Notes under the pieces: model-generated
The model's input: the letters and a program-made list of their open reading frames with translations, nothing else
Told to the model about the DNA's origin: nothing
Databases searched by the model: none
Shown here: positions 11,722 to 50,491 of the stretch, piece by piece
Numbering within the stretch: position 1 is the first letter of the stretch
How the letters are laid out: each line of letters begins with the position of its first letter
Assembly (NCBI GenBank): GCA_002796135.1
Contig: PCWB01000032.1
Coordinates: 1-53,797 of the forward strand
Direction: 5' to 3'
DNA from: Candidatus Omnitrophica bacterium CG11_big_fil_rev_8_21_14_0_20_41_12
GTDB taxonomy: Bacteria; Omnitrophota; Gorgyraeia; Gygaellales; Profunditerraquicolaceae
DNA: 53,797 bases
Position numbers and translations under genes: made by a program

Positions 11722-13251
11722 ATGATCTCAAAAACTTATAGTTTCGGACTTCTGGGCCTGGAGGCTTATCTGGTTGAAATAGAAATCGACGTTGCCGCAG
11801 GCCTTCCGCAAGTAACTTTGGTCGGTTTAGCAGATACGGCAATCAAGGAAAGTAAAGAAAGGGTACGCTCGGCAATCAAAAACTCAGGATTTCAATGGCC
11901 GGCGCAAAGAATAACTATAAATTTGGCTCCTTCTAATATTAAAAAGGAAGGCGCTTGTTTTGACCTGGCCATTGCCTTGGGAATTTTAGCGGCAACCGAA
12001 CAGATCAACGGTGAACTTCTTAGGAATTACGCGTTTCTGGGAGAGCTATCTCTTGATGGACGGTTGCGGCCGGTGCATGGAGTTTTGCCTATAAGTTTAG
12101 CCATGGCAAATCTGCCGCTAAAGAATCTGATCCTGCCCGAAGAAAATGCCAAAGAGGCTGGAATCGTTCCGGAGATATCTGCCTGGCCGCAAAAGAGCTT
12201 AAAAGAAACTATGCATTTTTTAACTGACCCCGGCTCAAGACAACCATTCAAATTAGTTATTGAAGAAAATCTTATACCAAATGCAAATTACAACCTAGAC
12301 TTCTGTGAAGTCAAAGGACAATATTTTGCTAAAAGGGCGCTTGAGGTGGCAGTTGCCGGCGGACATAACATTATCTTGCTTGGGCCACCGGGCTCAGGCA
12401 AAACTATGCTTGCTAAAAGAATCCCCACGATTATGCCTAGCCTTTCTTTGCAGGAAGCACTGGAAATAACTAAAATCCACTCGGTTGCAGGGACATTGTT
12501 AAACCAAGACGGCTTTATGGGAACCCGGCCATTCCGTTCTCCGCATCACGGAATCTCCGACGTTGCCTTGATCGGCGGAGGAAGCATACCTAAACCGGGA
12601 GAAATAAGTTTATCTCATTACGGAGTTTTATTCCTGGATGAGTTACCGGAATTCAGCCGCAAAGCGCTGGAAACATTAAGGCAGCCGCTGGAGGATAATT
12701 TAATTTGCATCAGCCGCATAAAAAGAAGTTTGATTTTTCCGGCTTGCTTTATTTTAGCTGCTGCGCTTAACCCCTGCCCCTGCGGAAATTATTTTAACCC
12801 GCAAAAACCTTGCCACTGTAACCCCGCAAAAATCAGGAATTACCTGGGTAAAATCTCCGGCCCATTGCTTGACCGTATCGATATACATATCGAGGTGCCA
12901 CAGGTAAAATACCGTGAACTAACCGAAACAAATAACGCCGAGTCATCGCAAGCGATCAGACAGCGCGTTGAGAATGCACGCCGGATCCAGCGGGAAAGAT
13001 TTAAATCAACCAAGATCTTCTGTAATGCTCAAATGCAGGGTCGGTTAATTAAAGAGGTTTGCCTGCTCAATAAAGAGGCCCAAGAATTAATCCGTATGGC
13101 GATATCAGAACTGGGTTTATCGGCAAGAGGTTATGATAAAATTCTTAAAGTGAGCCGAACAATTGCAGATTTAGAACAAAAGGAAATTATCTGCCAGGAG
13201 CATGTGGCTGAAGCCATACAATACCGCAGCCTGGACAAGCTTTTAAATTAA
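11722..13251 (+). CDS. comM: Mg-chelatase-like AAA+ protein YifB/ComM
   Basis: N-terminal Lon-protease-like domain, Walker A GPPGSGKTM, Walker B LFLDELPEF, and a C-terminal Mg_chelatase_C region (SARGYDKILKVSRTIADL). Confidence 0.9.
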   Translation: MISKTYSFGLLGLEAYLVEIEIDVAAGLPQVTLVGLADTAIKESKERVRSAIKNSGFQWPAQRITINLAPSNIKKEGACFDLAIALGILAATEQINGELLRNYAFLGELSLDGRLRPVHGVLPISLAMANLPLKNLILPEENAKEAGIVPEISAWPQKSLKETMHFLTDPGSRQPFKLVIEENLIPNANYNLDFCEVKGQYFAKRALEVAVAGGHNIILLGPPGSGKTMLAKRIPTIMPSLSLQEALEITKIHSVAGTLLNQDGFMGTRPFRSPHHGISDVALIGGGSIPKPGEISLSHYGVLFLDELPEFSRKALETLRQPLEDNLICISRIKRSLIFPACFILAAALNPCPCGNYFNPQKPCHCNPAKIRNYLGKISGPLLDRIDIHIEVPQVKYRELTETNNAESSQAIRQRVENARRIQRERFKSTKIFCNAQMQGRLIKEVCLLNKEAQELIRMAISELGLSARGYDKILKVSRTIADLEQKEIICQEHVAEAIQYRSLDKLLN

Positions 13252-13294: not shown

Positions 13295-13771
13295 ATGGTA
13301 AAAACAAGAATCTTTATCGAAAACGCTTGCTATCATATTTATGCAAGAGGAAATCAAAAACAGTTAGTTTTTATTGAAAGGAGTGATTTTGAATTCTATC
13401 TGAAGCAACTGAAACACTACAAAATAAAGTATTCTTTTCATTTGTATGGTTATTGCTTGATGCCCAACCATATCCATCTTATGGGAAAGCCTATCGTTCC
13501 TAAGAAACTATCTAATTTTATGCAATGTCTGCAACGTTCTTATACCGCTTATTATAATAAAAAATATAGCAAAGTCGGCCATCTTTGGCAGGGTAAATTT
13601 AAAGCAAAATTAATTGCTAAAGACCAGTATGCCTTGGATTGTATCTCCTATATTGAAACAAACCCAGTAAGGGCAAAATTGGTAAATAATCCTAAAGATT
13701 ATATTTTTTGTAGTTACTCGGAAAGGAATTTTGACAATAATTACCAGCTTCTGAATAAGTTTCTACTCTAA
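13295..13771 (+). CDS. REP-associated tyrosine transposase (RAYT; IS200/IS605-like Y1 HUH transposase)
   Basis: HUH motif in LMPNHIHLMG and catalytic Tyr context ISYIETNPVRAKLV. It is 158 aa and flanked by inverted REP units. Confidence 0.8.
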   Translation: MVKTRIFIENACYHIYARGNQKQLVFIERSDFEFYLKQLKHYKIKYSFHLYGYCLMPNHIHLMGKPIVPKKLSNFMQCLQRSYTAYYNKKYSKVGHLWQGKFKAKLIAKDQYALDCISYIETNPVRAKLVNNPKDYIFCSYSERNFDNNYQLLNKFLL

Positions 13772-13857: not shown

Positions 13858-14823
13858 TTAGTAGGTGGAGACCTCGATTGCGGAGGTGGTGCTGGAGGTC
13901 AAGCCAGCGGCATCCTTAACCGTAAGGGTTACGGTAAAATTACGCACGCCGTAAGTGGTACTGTAATAAATATTCTCGGAGTTCGCTTTAGTTGAGGTAT
14001 CCCCATCGCCAAAATCCCAATTATAAGCAACAATTTTCCCGTTTTTAGAAGTTGATCTCTTCCCAGAAAATTTAACCATAAGAGGAGAAAATCCTTTTTC
14101 GGGTTTTGCCGTAATCACAGCAACCGGGGGCATTAATACCTTTTCGATCACCGGCGGCTTAACCACAGGCGGCTTAATTTTTTTCACAGGCTTAATCGGC
14201 GCAACGGGTATTGGTTTAACAACCGGCTCGGAAGTTATTTGGGGAACATGTGGAAGAGCTTCCGGTTGAGACTTTGGCGCTGCAGGCGCAGCTACAACTG
14301 CATCTTGTAAAGCAGGCTCTTTAGCCAGATCTTCAGTAATATAAACAGCAAGTTTTTCTCTTAGGCCGGCAATGCGCGCCTTTTCCAGCTCCTCTTTCTG
14401 TTCATCGAGCTTATCCACTCTCTCTTGATATTTAAGATTACGGTGATATTTATAATCTTTTACGGCAATAACCGGCCAACGCAAAACTCCCCATAAAAAA
14501 TCTACCATCATAGCCGGCGGCTCCCAAAAAACCTCTTTTACCCTCGACTCTATTAAATCCATCTTCTTATAATAATACTCAACCTTAGCCCTGCGGCGCT
14601 TAAACCGTTCCTTGGCCAAAGTTAAATCCGGGAGAGATTTATCTTTCCCGACGGTATATTCTAATATGGGATCTCCGTTATAGCTTGCTAGATAACCTTG
14701 GCTGCCTTCGCCGGTGGCATTAGGTTTTTGGAATTTATAAGTAGCGCATCCGGATAAAATAAACGTAACAAATAATAAAATCAGAATTTTTCTCAAGGTT
14801 CTTTCTTCCTTTCTTTTAACCAA
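13858..14823 (-). CDS. Lipoprotein with a proline-rich linker and C-terminal PKD domain
   Basis: Lipobox-like FILSGC, a linker PVKKIKPPVVKPPV, and the PKD signature YNWDFGDGDTS...FTVTLTVKDAAG. Confidence 0.7.
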   Translation of the reverse strand: MVKRKEERTLRKILILLFVTFILSGCATYKFQKPNATGEGSQGYLASYNGDPILEYTVGKDKSLPDLTLAKERFKRRRAKVEYYYKKMDLIESRVKEVFWEPPAMMVDFLWGVLRWPVIAVKDYKYHRNLKYQERVDKLDEQKEELEKARIAGLREKLAVYITEDLAKEPALQDAVVAAPAAPKSQPEALPHVPQITSEPVVKPIPVAPIKPVKKIKPPVVKPPVIEKVLMPPVAVITAKPEKGFSPLMVKFSGKRSTSKNGKIVAYNWDFGDGDTSTKANSENIYYSTTYGVRNFTVTLTVKDAAGLTSSTTSAIEVSTY

Positions 14824-14827
14824 CTTA

Positions 14828-16366
14828 TTAATGCCGCATCAGAGCCAGCGCTTCCGAACGGGTCTTTTCATTTTCTTTAAAAATTCCGCGCACCGCACTC
14901 GTTACGGTCATCGCCCCGGGTTTTCTTACTCCGCGCATAGACATGCAATTTCCAGAAATAACAACTCTCCCATTTCGCCTAACCAAAACTAACCCCTTTG
15001 GCACGCTCACACAAAAAACTTCTCCATTATATTTTTTAAACGAAAAATTACACGGCCTTAATTTTGAATACCATTTATCTTCCCCTAGCTTTGTTTTATG
15101 CGTCTCCATCTTAAAGAATTTTTTATTATTTTGCTTTGTACAACCAATACCTAATTTAATACAAACTTCTTGCAAATCATTTATTAGCCTCTCCGATTTG
15201 GAAACAAAATGTATCGCTTTGTTCTTTTTAATATGCCCATCACCCTTTATATACCAATCAAGAAACAACCTTAATAATTTAGGAGGAGCATTTTTTATAA
15301 CCCTAGGGATATATTTATCTGCTGATTTACCAAATTTCTTAAAGTATTCATAAAAATCTTTATCTTCTATTCTGAACTGGATGGTCTTTCCACTTTTACA
15401 TTGTATATATTTAATTCCTAAACCATCGAATAGATCCTTGATTTCCGAAAAACTTTTTGATTTAGGGCTTTGAGAAACAACAACAAATTTACGTTTTCCA
15501 GTCTGCGTAACACAGCCCTCACTAACCCAAATTCCAAAAAATTGCGCAAATATATCTGCAGATAAAGTATACCTACCAATCTTTATATTCTTAACACTCT
15601 TACCGGACCAATTACATGCCCGAGGAATTACTAAATATTTTTTCATCAATTCTTTTATTGGACTGATATGCCAATTATTATTCTCGTTATAAAAATCCCA
15701 TTCTGAAGAATAATAGCATCTGTGCTCAGGAGTAACCAGTAAATCGACGGAAAGGCTTTTAGCTCTTACCATATTCCCATTATATTTATAAGAAACGAAG
15801 TCTTTAGGCTTAACAAAAGACAGGCGCCTTGTTAAAGGATCCACTTGAGCTACTTTATCGATACTCTTCAAATCCTTGAACAACTTCCAGCTATTCTCCG
15901 TTAATATCTCTGTTCTTTCATCATAACAAAGATGTTCCGCCTCAATCACCACCATTACTCCCAACGGCTTTAATTTGCTCATCACAATTTCAGCAATCTG
16001 CGTCGTTAATCTCTCCTGCACTTGGGGCCGACGGGATAAAATATCCACCACCCGGACAAACTTGCTTAATCCGGTTACCCGGCCGTTTTTAGGAATATAG
16101 GCAATATTTGCTCTGCCTAAAAAAGGTAGTAGATGATGCTCGCATACCGAATATAACGGTATACCCCGCAGAAGGATAATCTCATTATGCTTTTGGTCCA
16201 GAATGACTTCCAGTTCTTTCTCCGGATCCAGCTTAATGCCTGAGAATATCTCTTCGTACATCTGGGCCACCCGGCGCGGCGTCTCTAGGAGATCTTTCCT
16301 TTTCGGATCTTCGCCGATTGCTTCAAGAATCTGGCGGACTGCCTTCTCAATCTTAATTTTATTCAT
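14828..16366 (-). CDS. folE: GTP cyclohydrolase I (FolE) interrupted by an intein
   Basis: The exteins match FolE: [31 protein letters not shown] | [11 protein letters not shown]...ALALM. I prefer the ATG at 16366 (GAGGG upstream) over the TTG at 16375. About 327 extra residues are inserted. Confidence 0.9.
14948..15928 (-). mobile_element. Intein with a LAGLIDADG homing-endonuclease domain inside folE
   Basis: The intein starts at Cys ([11 protein letters not shown], block A). Block B is LLVTPEH. Two LAGLIDADG-like motifs are present ([11 protein letters not shown] and [13 protein letters not shown]). Blocks F and G are EVFCVSVP...RVVISGN, followed by the +1 Cys (CMSMRGV). The region is visibly more AT-rich than the exteins. 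Confidence 0.85.
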
Positions 16367-16407
16367 ATTTATCAAACCCTCTAGTAAACCTCAAAATTAT
16401 AGAACTT

Positions 16408-16509: not shown

Positions 16510-16896
16510 ATGCCCAAAAGAAAAATACTCGTAGTTGATGATCAAGAAGATGTATTGTCCCTGCTAAATGAGGCCTTATCCAAATTTGGTTTTGAAGCGA
16601 TGGTCTGCAAGGATCCTAAAAAAGTACTTGATTCAGTTAGGTCATTCCACCCTGATCTTATACTACTTGATTTATTGATGCCGAATCTGGGAGGATTTGA
16701 AATCTGTGAGATTTTAAATAATGACCCGGAAACCCACGGTATACCCATCATCATCATCTCCGGCCTTGGCGATTTAGTTGAAATAAAAAAAGCTTACAAG
16801 CTCGGAGTGGTAGGCTATTTCGTCAAACCGTTTGCCTTAAGCGATTTATGCAATGAAATATCTAAAGTTATCACCAACAAAGAAAAACCGCTTTAG
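16510..16896 (+). CDS. Stand-alone CheY-like receiver domain protein
   Basis: KILVVDDQEDV, LILLDLLMPNLGG and YFVKPF motifs. No output domain. Confidence 0.85.
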   Translation: MPKRKILVVDDQEDVLSLLNEALSKFGFEAMVCKDPKKVLDSVRSFHPDLILLDLLMPNLGGFEICEILNNDPETHGIPIIIISGLGDLVEIKKAYKLGVVGYFVKPFALSDLCNEISKVITNKEKPL

Positions 16897-16906
16897 CTAG
16901 CCGCCT

Positions 16907-18289
16907 TTATTTACCGATACAAAAATCATCAAAAATCCTGTTCAAAAGATCCTCGGGAAAACTTTTACCCAATATCTTATCTAAGTCAGCGCAGGCATCT
17001 TTAAAGCTCTGGGCAATAAATTCAGGCGGCAGCTTATCAGCTAAAGCAGACCGAGCCTGTCCGAGTAATTTCTTGGCGTCTTTTAGCGCCTGGATATGCC
17101 TTAAATTGCTCACCAGCATAAACTCCGGGGTAAGCACTTTTCCTTGATAAACAAACTCACAAAGCGCATCCTCCAGAGAATCAATATTTTTTGACTTTTT
17201 CGCGCAAATTTGAACTACTTTAGGGAACGCCTTGCAAATCTGCTCTTTTTCGATCCGCGCCTTTAAGTCAATTTTATTGATTACCGCGATCACGTTTTTA
17301 TTTCTTACTTCCTTAATCAATCTCCGGTCCTGGTCATTAAGCCTGCAGCTGGCATCAAACAAAATGATCACTAAATCCGCCAGCTTAATATGCTCTCTTG
17401 AACGCAAAATAGCTTTTCTCTCGATTAAATCCCGCGCCTTCAAGATTCCAGCAGTATCGACGATCTTTACCGGTATGCCTTTGATATCAAGCATCTCTTC
17501 AATTGTATCACGCGTTGTGCCGGCAACCGAGGTAACAATAGAGCGTTCTTTTTTAAGCAAGGCATTTAACAGCGAAGATTTTCCTACATTTGGTTTACCG
17601 CAGATAACCACATGAATTCCTTCGCGCAATATTCTTCCACAGAAAGCTCCCTCCAGTAATTTATTTAACCTGGCCTCAACATCCGTAAGTCCGCCGGAGA
17701 CTTGCATAGTATAATTATGCTGGATATCCTCTTCCGGAAAATCAATATCTGCATCCAGGAAAACTAAAATATCTAATAGTTTTTTACGGATTTTACTTAT
17801 CTCCTGCGACAGCCTCCCGCTTAACTGTCCTAAACTTACTTTTAATGCAGAATCGGTTTTTGCCCGGATGATATCAATGACTGCCTCTGCCTGGGCCAAA
17901 TCAATTCTACCGTTTAAAAAAGCCCGCTTAGTAAATTCTCCTGGACTGGCAAGCCGGGCGCCGTGTTTTAGAGTCAGATCTAATACTTGACCTAAAGCCA
18001 ACAATCCCCCGTGGCAATTTATCTCCACAACATCTTCCCGGGTATAAGATCTGGGTTTGCGCATAATCGTCAGGATCGCTTCATCGACGATTTTGCCATT
18101 ATCGCAGATTTTCCCGTAATGCATGGTATAGCTCTTAAAATCCGACGGTTTTGTCTTGCCAACAGGAATGAATATTTTATCGGCAATCAAGCAGGATTTC
18201 CTGCCACTAAGCCGTACAATACCGATGCCGCCTTGGCCTTGAGCGGTTGAAATTGCAGCAATCGTATCTTCTAAATTATCTTTAAACAT
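16907..18289 (-). CDS. mnmE: tRNA modification GTPase MnmE (TrmE)
   Basis: DTIAAISTAQGQGGIGIVRLSG, G domain GKPNVGKSSLLNAL / DTAG, and the C-terminal CIGK motif. I prefer the ATG at 18289 (GGGGAG SD) over the TTG at 18304. Confidence 0.92.
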   Translation of the reverse strand: MFKDNLEDTIAAISTAQGQGGIGIVRLSGRKSCLIADKIFIPVGKTKPSDFKSYTMHYGKICDNGKIVDEAILTIMRKPRSYTREDVVEINCHGGLLALGQVLDLTLKHGARLASPGEFTKRAFLNGRIDLAQAEAVIDIIRAKTDSALKVSLGQLSGRLSQEISKIRKKLLDILVFLDADIDFPEEDIQHNYTMQVSGGLTDVEARLNKLLEGAFCGRILREGIHVVICGKPNVGKSSLLNALLKKERSIVTSVAGTTRDTIEEMLDIKGIPVKIVDTAGILKARDLIERKAILRSREHIKLADLVIILFDASCRLNDQDRRLIKEVRNKNVIAVINKIDLKARIEKEQICKAFPKVVQICAKKSKNIDSLEDALCEFVYQGKVLTPEFMLVSNLRHIQALKDAKKLLGQARSALADKLPPEFIAQSFKDACADLDKILGKSFPEDLLNRIFDDFCIGK

Positions 18290-19601
18290 CTCTGAACTCC
18301 CCAACTACAAATAATGAACCGGTAACTAAAATTAAATCAGCCTTGTGCGCCAGACGCTTAGCTAAAAGCTTAGCTTCTTTTACGCTTTGCGTCAAATATA
18401 CTTTTTTCTTAAAATAGAGCGCTAATTTTTTAGGATCCATTGCCCGCAGAGTATCTGCGCGGGTGAGAATAATTTGATCAGCTAAAGGCTCAAGCGACTT
18501 GGAGATCCCCCGGATGTCTTTATCTCTAGATATTCCTAAAACCAAAATTAGTTTATTATATTTAAATTTATTTACCGCTTGCTTTAAAGCATCCGCAGAA
18601 GCCAGATTCTGCGCGCCGTCTAAAACAATCCCGGGTTTTCTGGCAATCACTTCGCATCTACCGGGCCAAGTCGTGTTATAAAGGCCCCGGCGTATTGCCA
18701 CCGGCCCGATATTAAATCCGAAAAAATTCAAAACCTCAACTAAACCCACGGCTAGGGAGGCATTGGCTATTTGATGATCCCCTAATAACCGCAGGCGCAA
18801 ATTTCGATAATCTCTACGCAGGCCTTTAATCGTAAAACCCTGCTTGGTTTTAAAATATTTTATCTGCCTGCCTAGCTCAAAAAGTTTAGCCTTAAATTTT
18901 TTACATCGGTTATGGATAACTTTCCGGGCTTCTTTACTTTGAGCCGCCGAAACTACAACTGCCCCTTTACTTTTTATAATTCCGCATTTTTCTCCGGCGA
19001 TCTTGGTTAATGTTTTACCCAGTTTCTGTACATGCTCAAAACTAATCGGAGCAATCCCGCAGACTAATGAGCCGGTGGCATTAGTTGCATCAAGAGAACC
19101 GCCCATGCCGGTTTCTAAAACTACAAAATCAAGTTTCTTGCGTTTAAAATATAGGAGGGTTAATGCCGTATAAACTTCAAAAAAAGTAAGTCCGTCGATT
19201 TTTGATTGACGATTATATTCATTAATTAACGGCTTTAATTCAACTACCAGCTCAGATAATCCCTTCGCAGAGATCATCCCTTCGAAGTCTTTAGTTGTTT
19301 TCCCGCCACAGGGTTTAAGGATCCTGATTCTTTCTCTGAAATCATGTAAATGGGGAGAAGTATAAAGGCCGACGGTAAAACCTGCTTCTCTTAAGATGTA
19401 AGCAACAAAAGCGCAAGTTGACCCCTTGCCTTTTGTCCCGGCAACATGAATAACGCGCAATGATTTCTGCGGATCGCCGATTAAAAATAAAAAATCCTTG
19501 ATTCGCTTAAGCTTGAGAGCTTCTCGGTAAGAATAGTTTAAATTTGTTTCGTAATTAGGAAAAGAGTTTAGGTATCTTAGAACTTCGGATGGAGAAAGCA
19601 T
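18282..19601 (-). CDS. folC: Folylpolyglutamate synthase / dihydrofolate synthase
   Basis: Mur-ligase P-loop HVAGTKGKGS plus the general FolC layout and length. Confidence 0.88.
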   Translation of the reverse strand: MLSPSEVLRYLNSFPNYETNLNYSYREALKLKRIKDFLFLIGDPQKSLRVIHVAGTKGKGSTCAFVAYILREAGFTVGLYTSPHLHDFRERIRILKPCGGKTTKDFEGMISAKGLSELVVELKPLINEYNRQSKIDGLTFFEVYTALTLLYFKRKKLDFVVLETGMGGSLDATNATGSLVCGIAPISFEHVQKLGKTLTKIAGEKCGIIKSKGAVVVSAAQSKEARKVIHNRCKKFKAKLFELGRQIKYFKTKQGFTIKGLRRDYRNLRLRLLGDHQIANASLAVGLVEVLNFFGFNIGPVAIRRGLYNTTWPGRCEVIARKPGIVLDGAQNLASADALKQAVNKFKYNKLILVLGISRDKDIRGISKSLEPLADQIILTRADTLRAMDPKKLALYFKKKVYLTQSVKEAKLLAKRLAHKADLILVTGSLFVVGEFRDV

Positions 19602-19604
19602 GCA

Positions 19605-21164
19605 TTAATGCTTGAAGTGCCGAATGCCTGTGGTAACCATGGAAATTTTATACTTATTACAAGCGGCGATAATTTCTTGATCGGCGATCGAGCCGCCCGG
19701 CTGGATGATCGCCTTGGCCTTGGCTTTATGCGCCCAGGATATCGCATCAGGTTTAGGGAAAAATGCATCCGAAGCCAGACAACAATTCTTACTTGATTTA
19801 CCGGATTTATTTTTAGCGATCATTACCGAATCTACCCGGGACATCTGTCCGGCTCCGATTCCCACCGTCCGGGTACCGACGGCTAAGACAATCGCATTGG
19901 ATTTTACGTGCTTGGCCACCTTCCAGGAAAAAATCAAACTTTTCCATTCGGCTTTGCTCGGTTTCTTTTTAGTTACTACTTTCAAATTATCTAAATTTAA
20001 GGTTGCTAAATCCTTGCTTTGTAAAAGCGCTCCCCCGCTAACCCGTTTGATCTGTGACTCATCCACCATCTTCAAATCATCCAGCTGAAGAAGCCGCAAA
20101 TTTTTCTTCTCTTTAAATAAAGTAACGGCCTGTTGATCAAAACTGGGAGCAATGATACACTCTAAAAATCCACTCTTGATTATGGCCTGAGCGGTTTTTA
20201 AATCCATTTTTCTGTTTAAGGCTACAATTCCGCCAAACGCCGAAAGCTTATCGGTTTTCCAGGCGCCTAAATATGCCTTGCTCAGATCTTTATCTTCACA
20301 AACACCGCAGGGATTATTATGCTTCACAATTACTGCTGCCGGACCCTGAAACTCTTTTACCAGCTCAGTTGCAGAATTTAAATCAAGAATATTATTAAAA
20401 GAGAGCTCTTTGCCCTGCAGCTGATTTAAATTAATCAGTCCTGCAGATTTTCCTTTTTCTTTATAAAAGGCCGCTTGCTGATGCGGGTTTTCGCCATAAC
20501 GCAAATCCTGGATTTTTTCAAAAGCTAAAATAAGCTCGTCAGGGAAAACCCCGGATGATTTTTTTCGGTCTTCAAAATTACTGCTTAAATAATTATAGAT
20601 TGCCGCATCATACTTGCTCGTATGACTAAAAACTTCAATACCCAGCTGACGCATTAAATCCGTAGATACCGCCCCATTATTTTTCTTTAACTCCGCAATT
20701 ACCTGAATATAACGTTGAGGGTTACAGATCACCGCCACCGATTGACAGTTTTTGGCTGCGCTACGCAACATGGACGGGCCCCCGATATCAATATTCTCAA
20801 TAATCTCCTCGCTACTTACTTGCGGCTTGTTGGCAGTTTTCTCAAAAGGATATAGATTAACCACAACCATATCAATGGGTGCGATTTTATGCTCATCTAA
20901 AACCTGCATATGTTTAGAATTATTACGCAACGCAAGCAGGCCGGCGTGAATCTTAGGATGAAGCGTTTTTACTCTACCGTCGAGTATTTCAGGAAAACCT
21001 GTATATGCAGATACCTCAGTTACGGCGATATTGTTTGCCTTCAGAAGCTGCGCAGTACCTCCGGTAGAAATAATCTCTACTCCGAAATTATTTAGCTCTC
21101 TGGCTAATTCCACAACTCCATTTTTATCTGATACGCTAATTAATGCGCGTTTAATCTTAATCAT
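19605..21164 (-). CDS. purH: Bifunctional AICAR transformylase / IMP cyclohydrolase
   Basis: MGS-like N-terminus (ALISVSDKNGVVELAREL, STGGTA, GRVKTLHPKIHAG) and an AICARFT domain (KHNNPCG, ASDAFFP) ending in RHFKH. Confidence 0.95.
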   Translation of the reverse strand: MIKIKRALISVSDKNGVVELARELNNFGVEIISTGGTAQLLKANNIAVTEVSAYTGFPEILDGRVKTLHPKIHAGLLALRNNSKHMQVLDEHKIAPIDMVVVNLYPFEKTANKPQVSSEEIIENIDIGGPSMLRSAAKNCQSVAVICNPQRYIQVIAELKKNNGAVSTDLMRQLGIEVFSHTSKYDAAIYNYLSSNFEDRKKSSGVFPDELILAFEKIQDLRYGENPHQQAAFYKEKGKSAGLINLNQLQGKELSFNNILDLNSATELVKEFQGPAAVIVKHNNPCGVCEDKDLSKAYLGAWKTDKLSAFGGIVALNRKMDLKTAQAIIKSGFLECIIAPSFDQQAVTLFKEKKNLRLLQLDDLKMVDESQIKRVSGGALLQSKDLATLNLDNLKVVTKKKPSKAEWKSLIFSWKVAKHVKSNAIVLAVGTRTVGIGAGQMSRVDSVMIAKNKSGKSSKNCCLASDAFFPKPDAISWAHKAKAKAIIQPGGSIADQEIIAACNKYKISMVTTGIRHFKH

Positions 21165-37482: not shown

Positions 37483-37561
37483 TGGCGGGGCCGACGAGAT
37501 TCGGACTCGCGATCTCCTCCGTGACAGGGAGGCGCTTTAAGCCAGGCTAAGCTACGACCCC
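37483..37561 (-). tRNA. tRNA-Asp (anticodon GUC), CCA encoded
   Basis: Hand-folded cloverleaf: acceptor GGGGTCG/CGGCCCC, D stem GCTT/AAGC, anticodon stem CCTCC/GGAGG with loop CTGTCAC, T loop TCCGAAT. Confidence 0.9.
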
Positions 37562-37623: not shown

Positions 37624-37700
37624 TGGTGGGCGATAGAGGAGTTGAACCCCTGACCCTCTGAATGTAAATCAGATGCTCTAACCAACTGAGCTAATCGCCC
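37624..37700 (-). tRNA. tRNA-Val (anticodon UAC), CCA encoded
   Basis: Acceptor GGGCGAT/ATCGCCC, D arm GCTC-AGTTGGTTA-GAGC, anticodon stem TCTGA/TCAGA with loop TTTACAT, T loop TTCAACT. Confidence 0.9.
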
Positions 37701-50419: not shown

Positions 50420-50491
50420 TGCCCCTGGACAGAATCGAACTGTCACCACCAGCTTCGGAGGCTGATGCGCTATCCGTTGCGCTACAGGGGC
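50420..50491 (-). tRNA. tRNA-Arg (anticodon CCG), CCA not encoded
   Basis: Acceptor GCCCCTG/CAGGGGC, D stem GCGC/GCGC, anticodon stem TCAGC/GCTGG with loop CTCCGAA, T arm GACAG-TTCGATT-CTGTC. Confidence 0.88.

Follow-up and report, generated by a model that had tools for sequence, protein, structure and literature searches.

A predicted bifunctional intein at the zinc-ligand cysteine of GTP cyclohydrolase I in an Omnitrophota genome

How does a bacterium make GTP cyclohydrolase I (FolE) from a gene in which several hundred foreign codons separate one zinc ligand from the rest of the active site? The question is posed by folE on contig PCWB01000032.1 of Candidatus Omnitrophica bacterium CG11_big_fil_rev_8_21_14_0_20_41_12 (assembly GCA_002796135.1), which was analysed over positions 1 to 53,797, a 54-kb stretch referred to here as the window. 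An earlier note, made from the letters of this DNA, had read the segment 14948-15928 as a LAGLIDADG intein, a protein element that excises itself from its host chain and ligates the flanking exteins. The reading favoured here, with a probability of about 0.78, is that this minus-strand segment is a bifunctional intein that splices itself out of FolE and whose homing endonuclease is most likely active.

The interrupted folE gene

The minus-strand open reading frame (ORF) at 14828-16375 encodes 515 amino acids (aa) when counted from an upstream in-frame TTG at 16375, a mechanical ORF start, and 512 aa from an ATG that matches the starts of homologues (M[ND]K[IK]K). The protein reads VVIEAEHL, then CYDERTEIL through to NGRVVISGN, and then resumes with the C-terminal part of FolE. 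Its features are as follows.

14828-16366, minus strand: folE precursor gene, start ATG at 16366, stop codon at 14828-14830
15929-16366, minus strand: N-extein, FolE residues 1-146, with zinc ligands Cys75 and His78 (CEHH), ending in EAEHL; matches PF01227 positions 1-147, with the ligands placed by alignment to 1WM9/1WUR
14948-15928, minus strand: intein, 327 aa from Cys1 to Asn327, an in-frame insert of 981 nt or 327 codons
15899-15928, minus strand: block A, with Cys1, T6, E7 and T10 invariant in the clade
15719-15742, minus strand: block B, LLVTPEHR, with T66 (B:7), H69 (B:10, invariant) and R70 (B:11)
15074-15601, minus strand: LAGLIDADG homing-endonuclease domain, about residues 110-285 of the intein, with matches to PF14528, PI-PkoII, TliVMA and I-DmoI
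15512-15550, minus strand: LAGLIDADG motif 1, residues 127-139, with E137 at the catalytic position and G138; invariant in alignment A2
15233-15271, minus strand: LAGLIDADG motif 2, residues 220-232, with G229-D230-G231; invariant in alignment A2
14948-15022, minus strand: blocks F and G, with Cys306 at F:4 and invariant R317-R318, ending in G326-N327 and containing no His
14831-14947, minus strand: C-extein, 39 aa, beginning with Cys+1 (codon 14945-14947)

The boundaries proposed earlier are correct to the base, and the length then given as about 327 residues is exactly 327 codons. Each hallmark that had been listed is also in place, namely Cys1, the TPEH of block B, two LAGLIDADG motifs, blocks F and G, the terminal Asn and the Cys that follows it. 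Excision of the insert was expected to restore FolE, and it does so end to end. The resulting 185-188 aa protein matches PF01227 (GTP_cyclohydroI) over positions 1-178 of 179 (3e-76), NF006826 at 2.6e-83 (278 bits against a cut-off of 162) and TIGR00063 over positions 1-180 of 180 (2.2e-72, 242 bits against 181.6), so that all three models score above their curated cut-offs. The predicted spliced product is a standard GTP cyclohydrolase IA of the kind represented by 1WM9/1WUR, 1FBX and 4UQF, the last matched at E 2e-74. It differs from these in that the gene is interrupted, and the enzyme is possible only after protein splicing.

The position of the insert is best appreciated from an alignment with Thermus thermophilus FolE (1WM9/1WUR), in which extein Cys147 corresponds to residue 179, Cys75 to residue 108 and His78 to residue 111. 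Two residues before the insertion lies the His of the EAEH motif, FolE His145, which we take to be catalytic by comparison with E. coli His179. Enzymes of the FolE-IA type hold a Cys2His-OH- zinc site, and C179 is named among its cysteine ligands in a 2024 review (PMC11672702), which agrees with the earlier note in taking the interrupted cysteine for a zinc ligand. As placed by this alignment, the intein sits between Leu146 and the zinc ligand Cys147, a residue predicted to serve both as a ligand in the mature enzyme and as the +1 nucleophile of splicing. The active site cannot form in the precursor, and splicing is therefore required for FolE activity. The insert is also compositionally foreign and, as previously claimed, richer in A and T than its surroundings: its GC content is 0.327, compared with 0.466 for the exteins and 0.413 for the window as a whole, and its GC at third codon positions is 0.29 against 0.51 in the exteins.

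Fold and splicing class of the insert

That the insert is a LAGLIDADG intein is supported both by sequence matches and by a predicted fold. The insert matches Pfam LAGLIDADG_3 (PF14528) at 1.9e-10, with 41.3 bits against a 22.5-bit cut-off, as well as the intein portions of intein-containing NCBIfam models for ribonucleotide reductase (RNR), RNA polymerase A'', V-ATPase A, DnaB and GyrA. Searching with phmmer retrieves the inteins TliVMA (7QSS) and PI-PkoII (2CW7) from the Protein Data Bank (PDB), and a profile built from 14 family sequences matches PI-PkoII at 2e-15, TliVMA at 4e-14 and, over residues 6-82, the N-terminal HINT portion of AceL NrdHF-1-1 (6ZGQ), another intein, at 4e-7. Within the window the family profile matches only the folE ORF, at 1e-146, so the pattern is not due to chance, and the same search finds no second intein of the clade in the 54 kb.

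An AlphaFold2 model of the intein, computed with 42 homologues, has a mean predicted local distance difference test score of 96.9 and a predicted template-modelling (TM) score of 0.93. Compared with the PDB by Foldseek, it most closely resembles inteins that are bifunctional and complete, namely 7QSU (E 1.9e-16, TM 0.71), PI-PfuI (1DQ3) and PI-SceI (1VDE), which indicates that both the HINT and the endonuclease domains are present. Next in rank are free-standing LAGLIDADG enzymes that superpose on the central domain. Among them are matches to I-DmoI, with a target-normalised TM of about 0.68 and a root-mean-square deviation of 3.0 over 168 columns, in which the duplicated alpha-beta-beta-alpha-beta-beta-alpha LAGLIDADG fold is found.

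The known archaeal and yeast bifunctional inteins, including TliVMA of Thermococcus litoralis and the Pyrococcus horikoshii VMA intein (7QSS/7QSU/7QST), PI-PfuI, PI-PkoII and PI-SceI, share with the FolE intein the order HINT-N, two-motif LAGLIDADG domain and HINT-C. Common to all are Cys1, the TxxH of block B, the terminal Asn and a +1 nucleophile, with TM values of 0.6-0.7 and E-values down to 2e-16. The differences are an identity of 9-17%, a host that is FolE where theirs are ATPases, polymerases or RNRs, the absence of His from both G:6 and F:13, and a length of 327 aa against 360-540 aa. Judged by length only, the FolE intein also lacks the extra DNA-recognition region of PI-SceI.

With regard to splicing class, the insert is a full-length intein of class-1 type: it is in frame, carries Cys1, a Thr-x-x-His in block B, a terminal Asn and a +1 Cys, and adopts a predicted HINT fold. 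Cys1 is invariant in alignments of 42 and of 14 sequences and in all 105 FolE alleles parsed for motif counts (see below), T66 is kept in at least 90% of the aligned sequences and H69 in all of them. One typical but non-obligatory class-1 trait, a penultimate His at G:6, is replaced by Gly326. Two other classes were considered and ruled out. Class 3 has an obligate Cys at F:4, a WCT triplet and no N-terminal nucleophile, which is at odds with the invariant Cys1 and with Ser at F:4 in 15 of 105 alleles; class 2, the KlbA type, has Ala1 and Ser at G:6, where the FolE intein has Cys1 and Gly326. The Cys at F:4 is itself commonplace, being the second most common residue at this position in inteins generally (PMC4031507).

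The penultimate Gly had been flagged as unusual. It is indeed there, but within its clade it is the rule, being invariant in the 105 alleles and in the wider clade. Given that about 5% of functional inteins have no His at G:6 (PMC4031507), this is best regarded as a lineage trait and not as decay. Other inteins without this His, such as those of Ssp DnaE, Chlamydomonas ClpP and Mja PEP synthase, are unrelated to the FolE intein beyond the general HINT fold. The ClpP intein reportedly has Gly at G:6 (Wang and Liu, in 1997), and the Ssp DnaE intein shares with the FolE intein an Arg at B:11, here R70. What sets the present clade apart is that the Gly is invariant across thousands of sequences and goes together with an Arg-Arg pair, likewise invariant, in block F/G.

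From these residues a class-1 route can be proposed. The 512-aa precursor would be made as a single chain that lacks the Cys2His zinc site of FolE. Within the HINT domain, Cys1 would form the N-terminal thioester, aided by T66 and H69 of block B; trans-thioesterification would move the N-extein to Cys+1, cyclisation of Asn327 would release the intein, and an S-to-N shift would leave an active GTP cyclohydrolase I whose EAEHL-CMSMRG backbone is restored. Since blocks F and G contain no His, Asn cyclisation is probably helped by arginines, either R70, at the B:11 position whose Arg has been proposed to assist this step in the Ssp DnaE intein (PMC4031507), or the invariant R317-R318, or both. We infer, in other words, that arginines substitute for histidines at this step.

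Family, empty sites and competing readings

Used alone as the query against 5.8 billion proteins, the intein gives 273 matches, of which the best 120 are nearly all FolE proteins, 503-559 aa in length. Closest to the window among database proteins is P0001 (from a 56-kb JGI contig), which has an identical intein and differs at one extein residue, SKLVRV against SKFVRV (window ~16055-16069, FolE residue 103). Motifs were counted in 105 full-length FolE alleles, each a protein cluster. All 105 share the same insertion site, H[LM]/C...GN/C[MIV]xxRG with slashes at the junctions, as well as the Gly-Asn terminus. Block B conforms to [TS]PxH[RK] in 104, so that B:11 is Arg or Lys, and F:4 is Cys in 87 and Ser in 15 of 105. 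In the endonuclease domain, an acidic residue followed by Gly is kept at motif 1 in 99 of 105 (Glu-Gly in 97, Asp-Gly in 2) and an acidic residue between glycines at motif 2 in 96 of 105 (Gly-Asp-Gly in 95, Gly-Glu-Gly in 1). Only 2 of the 105 have any His among the last 25 intein residues.

The distribution of these alleles is broad. In a GTDB scan with one genome per species, 301 genomes hold a relative of the intein, and among the best 80, which were examined, 24 are folE alleles, amounting to at least 24 GTDB species in five phyla. Carriers belong to Omnitrophota, Margulisiibacteriota, Chloroflexota (Anaerolineae, Ktedonobacteria, Chloroflexia), Rubrobacter, including the cultured R. taiwanensis, and Aquificota (Hydrogenothermaceae, Persephonella and others). 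Neighbour-joining of 75 clade members sets the FolE inteins apart as a single split in 96 of 100 bootstraps, in keeping with a folE site that was colonised once, presumably with spread thereafter. Their monophyly across phyla suggests transfer.

A few alleles look like the decay stage expected in a homing cycle. The intein of the actinobacterium Rubrobacter taiwanensis (L028, NZ_SKBU01000023.1; protein P0110) keeps all splicing residues but is shortened to 317 aa and reads SGG and GEG where SEG and GDG are usual, both LAGLIDADG acidic residues being lost; together with the shortening, this points to an endonuclease that is decaying. One Aquificota allele has GNG. Two further proteins, P0112 of Persephonella hydrogeniphila and P0119 of Sulfurihydrogenibium subterraneum, bear the NCBI name 'LAGLIDADG family homing endonuclease'; they begin inside the intein and continue into the FolE C-extein, which indicates that the folE precursor is mis-annotated or disrupted there.

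The relatives extend well beyond folE. Non-folE loci among the best 80 are 28-35% identical to the FolE intein over its whole length and occupy PurD (GPN/TGGMG), NrdD (LTG/SIGV), ThyX, PolB, a class-III aminotransferase, an NAD-epimerase and a carbamoyltransferase in genomes of DPANN, Asgard, the candidate phyla radiation and Omnitrophota, and all end in [SC]GN followed by C, S or T. These sister inteins share with the FolE alleles the signature CY[DS]xxTEILT ... TPxH[RK] ... SEG ... GDG ... VRRNG....[SC]GN then C/S/T, while differing in host gene and insertion site, the FolE alleles being a monophyletic group of their own. The earlier note had thought a metabolic host unusual. FolE is a metabolic enzyme, but for this clade such hosts (PurD, ThyX, the class-III aminotransferase, the epimerase and the carbamoyltransferase) are normal. 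When 1.84 billion cluster representatives were searched exhaustively with HMMER, 710 matched at E<=1e-30 and 5872 at E<=1e-10. Many of these proteins hold several copies, and some metagenomic ones have up to about ten matched stretches each. The clade is very large and appears to be uncharacterised. Two members may be singled out: a Candidatus Pacearchaeota genome (L038, CP061211.1) carries two inteins of the clade in one NrdD gene, and a metagenomic TauE-family membrane protein (P0118, PF01925) contains a member that ends in Ser-Gln followed by Ser and not in Gly-Asn.

Among close relatives of the host, the site is often empty. More than 120 FolE proteins of 184-197 aa, mostly from Omnitrophota metagenome-assembled genomes, are 88-96% identical to the spliced product and have no intein. 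Two of these genomes, L002 and L003, provide syntenic empty sites. L002 matches the window in the order MnmE, response regulator, FolE, PKD protein and Mg-chelatase, and its folE runs through the junction uninterrupted, with GAGCATATG directly followed by TGCATGTCG; the intein-less site reads GTTATCGAGGCTGAGCATATG and then TGCATGTCGATGCGCGGGGTAAG, and the DNA alignment gives the same junction as the window. Extein divergence from the window, expressed as proportions of nonsynonymous (pN) and synonymous (pS) differences, is 0.025 and 0.44 for intein-less L002 and 0.025 and 0.64 for L006, the closest intein-bearing genome. The empty allele is therefore as close to the window as the occupied one, and presence of the intein is polymorphic at the shortest distances sampled.

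Where the intein is present it is under constraint. In comparisons among the window, L001, L004 and L006 its pN/pS is about 0.1-0.2, alike in the HINT and endonuclease parts; pN and pS in the endonuclease part are 0.057/0.62 and 0.064/0.40 (about 0.09-0.16), a constraint equal to that on the HINT part, and the exteins are strongly constrained at about 0.04-0.1. Purifying selection acts on both intein domains, which supports a spliced, mobile element rather than a dead insertion. The endonuclease itself is most likely active, a prediction made from the retention of E137 and D230 and from the purifying selection on this domain. Its target would be folE alleles that lack the intein, cut at a highly conserved sequence across the junction, GAGCAT(A/C)T(G/T) followed by TGCATGTC, and repair would copy the element in. 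Homing of this kind at a conserved folE site would explain the patchy, cross-phylum distribution.

Several observations weigh against this reading. First, the search with intein and LAGLIDADG models advocated in the earlier note succeeded only in part. LAGLIDADG_3 and the intein-containing NCBIfam models match, but no Pfam HINT or intein-splicing model matches this sequence directly in the Pfam and NCBIfam scan. The HINT model PF14890 is recorded for some relatives of the intein, and because the Pfam HINT models are silent here the HINT assignment rests on the predicted fold, the profile match to 6ZGQ and the motifs. Second, both histidines that usually assist Asn cyclisation, at F:13 and G:6, are absent. 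Third, a compensating folE2 or second folE may lie elsewhere in the genome, beyond the 54-kb window, which itself contains no second folE. Fourth, inheritance of the intein looks vertical among the nearest genomes that carry it. The FolE inteins of the five phyla form a monophyletic group, yet intein and extein distances co-vary among close relatives, the window and L006 differing by a pN of 0.035 in the intein and 0.025 in the extein. An apparent discordance for this pair, with 93% identity in the intein and 82% in the extein, was rejected as an artefact of N-masked bases in the L006 C-extein, and the corrected values look vertical. Fifth, intein pS is consistently below that of the flanking exteins (for example 0.33 against 0.64 and 0.56 against 0.92; loci L001, L004 and L006), which could point to more recent exchange of the intein but may instead reflect AT-biased codon composition, with extein pS values of up to 0.92 indicating saturation. 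Finally, splicing and cleavage are activities that we infer, and the nearest solved structures share only 9-17% identity with the FolE intein.

The fourth of these points is also what gives the strongest alternative its footing, namely that the intein splices while its endonuclease is now inactive, the element being a vertical passenger whose patchiness stems from old invasions and precise losses. Some alleles, such as that of R. taiwanensis (SGG/GEG, 317 aa) and one from Aquificota (GNG), clearly have a decayed endonuclease. This explanation is nonetheless unlikely for the window, where both acidic residues at catalytic positions are intact and a pN/pS of about 0.09-0.16 puts the endonuclease under a constraint equal to that on the splicing domain; an endonuclease fallen silent would be expected to drift or to be lost by deletion, as in Rubrobacter.

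A different kind of proposal concerns the chemistry and its possible regulation. It is a rather doubtful idea, though one with consequences, that the clade-wide loss of His at F:13 and G:6 together with the conserved arginines (R70, R317-R318) may mark a distinct chemistry of Asn cyclisation, or that splicing may be gated by zinc or redox state through His145, Cys147 and the nearby Cys75 and His78. If true, the first enzyme of folate and queuosine synthesis would mature conditionally. Taken one step further, the intein would be a conditional switch that benefits its host, with zinc- or redox-gated splicing and FolE maturation arising from Cys1 and Cys+1 placed beside Cys75 and His78. Insertion exactly at a metal ligand, retention of the element in five phyla, and a Cys1/Cys+1 pair and F:4 Cys that could form disulfides would all suit such a switch, and, going by the titles of studies cited in PMC4031507, other inteins are known to be inhibited by zinc or held in redox traps. 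It is nevertheless improbable: selfish homing alone predicts insertion at a conserved nucleophile, most close relatives thrive without the intein, and the same clade occupies many unrelated enzymes that have no metal sites.

Less plausible still is a dead insertion that does not splice and leaves folE a pseudogene or its protein inactive. The missing penultimate and F:13 histidines and the silent Pfam HINT models are what could be cited for it. However, the 515-codon ORF is intact and all other catalytic positions are conserved, the Gly-Asn terminus is invariant in 105 alleles and so is no lesion, purifying selection acts on intein and exteins alike (extein pN/pS about 0.04-0.1), and the element persists in cultured organisms such as R. 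taiwanensis. The loss of essential blocks that the earlier note had named as grounds for this view is not seen, with the blocks retained and both domains under selection. The last alternatives are that the insert is a FolE domain peculiar to the lineage and no intein, or that an error of assembly or annotation has joined a free-standing endonuclease gene to folE. The NCBI names of the two Aquificota fragments speak for this view, which is effectively refuted by the Cys1 and Asn-Cys boundaries, the HINT plus LAGLIDADG fold, the same element with the same termini in unrelated host proteins, and an identical junction in more than 100 independent assemblies.

Genomic setting, literature and significance

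Upstream of folE, and like it on the minus strand, are purH (19605-21164), a gene for a FolC-like Mur ligase (18282-19601) and mnmE (16907-18304), and a divergent response-regulator (RR) gene (16510-16896, plus strand) stands between mnmE and folE. This folate-related neighbourhood, PurH-FolC-MnmE-RR-FolE, is conserved in L001, L002 and L005. An Rfam scan of the window finds only three tRNA genes (37486-37561, 37627-37700 and 50420-50491, minus strand) and no riboswitch near or upstream of folE. On the other side of folE, an IS200-like Y1 transposase ORF (13295-13771, plus strand; PF01797, 5.8e-11) occupies a 606-bp gap between a ComM/Mg-chelatase gene (11722-13251) and a PKD-domain gene (13858-14823). 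The same gap is about 18 bp in the intein-less L002 and L003, making this a second mobile-element difference between close relatives.

A search of about 8.3 million full texts finds no paper that describes an intein in FolE or GTP cyclohydrolase, and the co-occurrences of these terms that were checked are incidental. Neither FolE nor cyclohydrolase is mentioned in the main text of Novikova et al. 2016 (PMC4760082), and a listing in its supplementary tables or in InBase is possible. The same survey assigns 61.5% of bacterial intein hosts to COG category L and 21.7% to category F, other categories being much less represented. In sequence databases the FolE intein appears either within 'GTP cyclohydrolase I FolE' entries of 510-540 aa or as a truncated 'LAGLIDADG family homing endonuclease', a sign that annotation pipelines mishandle the precursor.

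Taken together, the type of element is ordinary, an intein of HINT and LAGLIDADG domains placed at a conserved nucleophile of an active site, and it is the host and the clade that are absent from the searchable literature. The general understanding of inteins is unchanged by it. What the locus does is to add GTP cyclohydrolase I, a zinc-dependent, non-ATPase enzyme of cofactor biosynthesis, to the intein hosts, and the occurrence of the Gly-Asn clade in many metabolic genes widens the view of intein distribution centred on replication, repair and ATPase proteins that is conveyed by PMC4760082. With its His-less, Arg-rich C-terminal active site and a cultured carrier in Rubrobacter taiwanensis, the FolE intein offers an accessible system for His-free Asn cyclisation.

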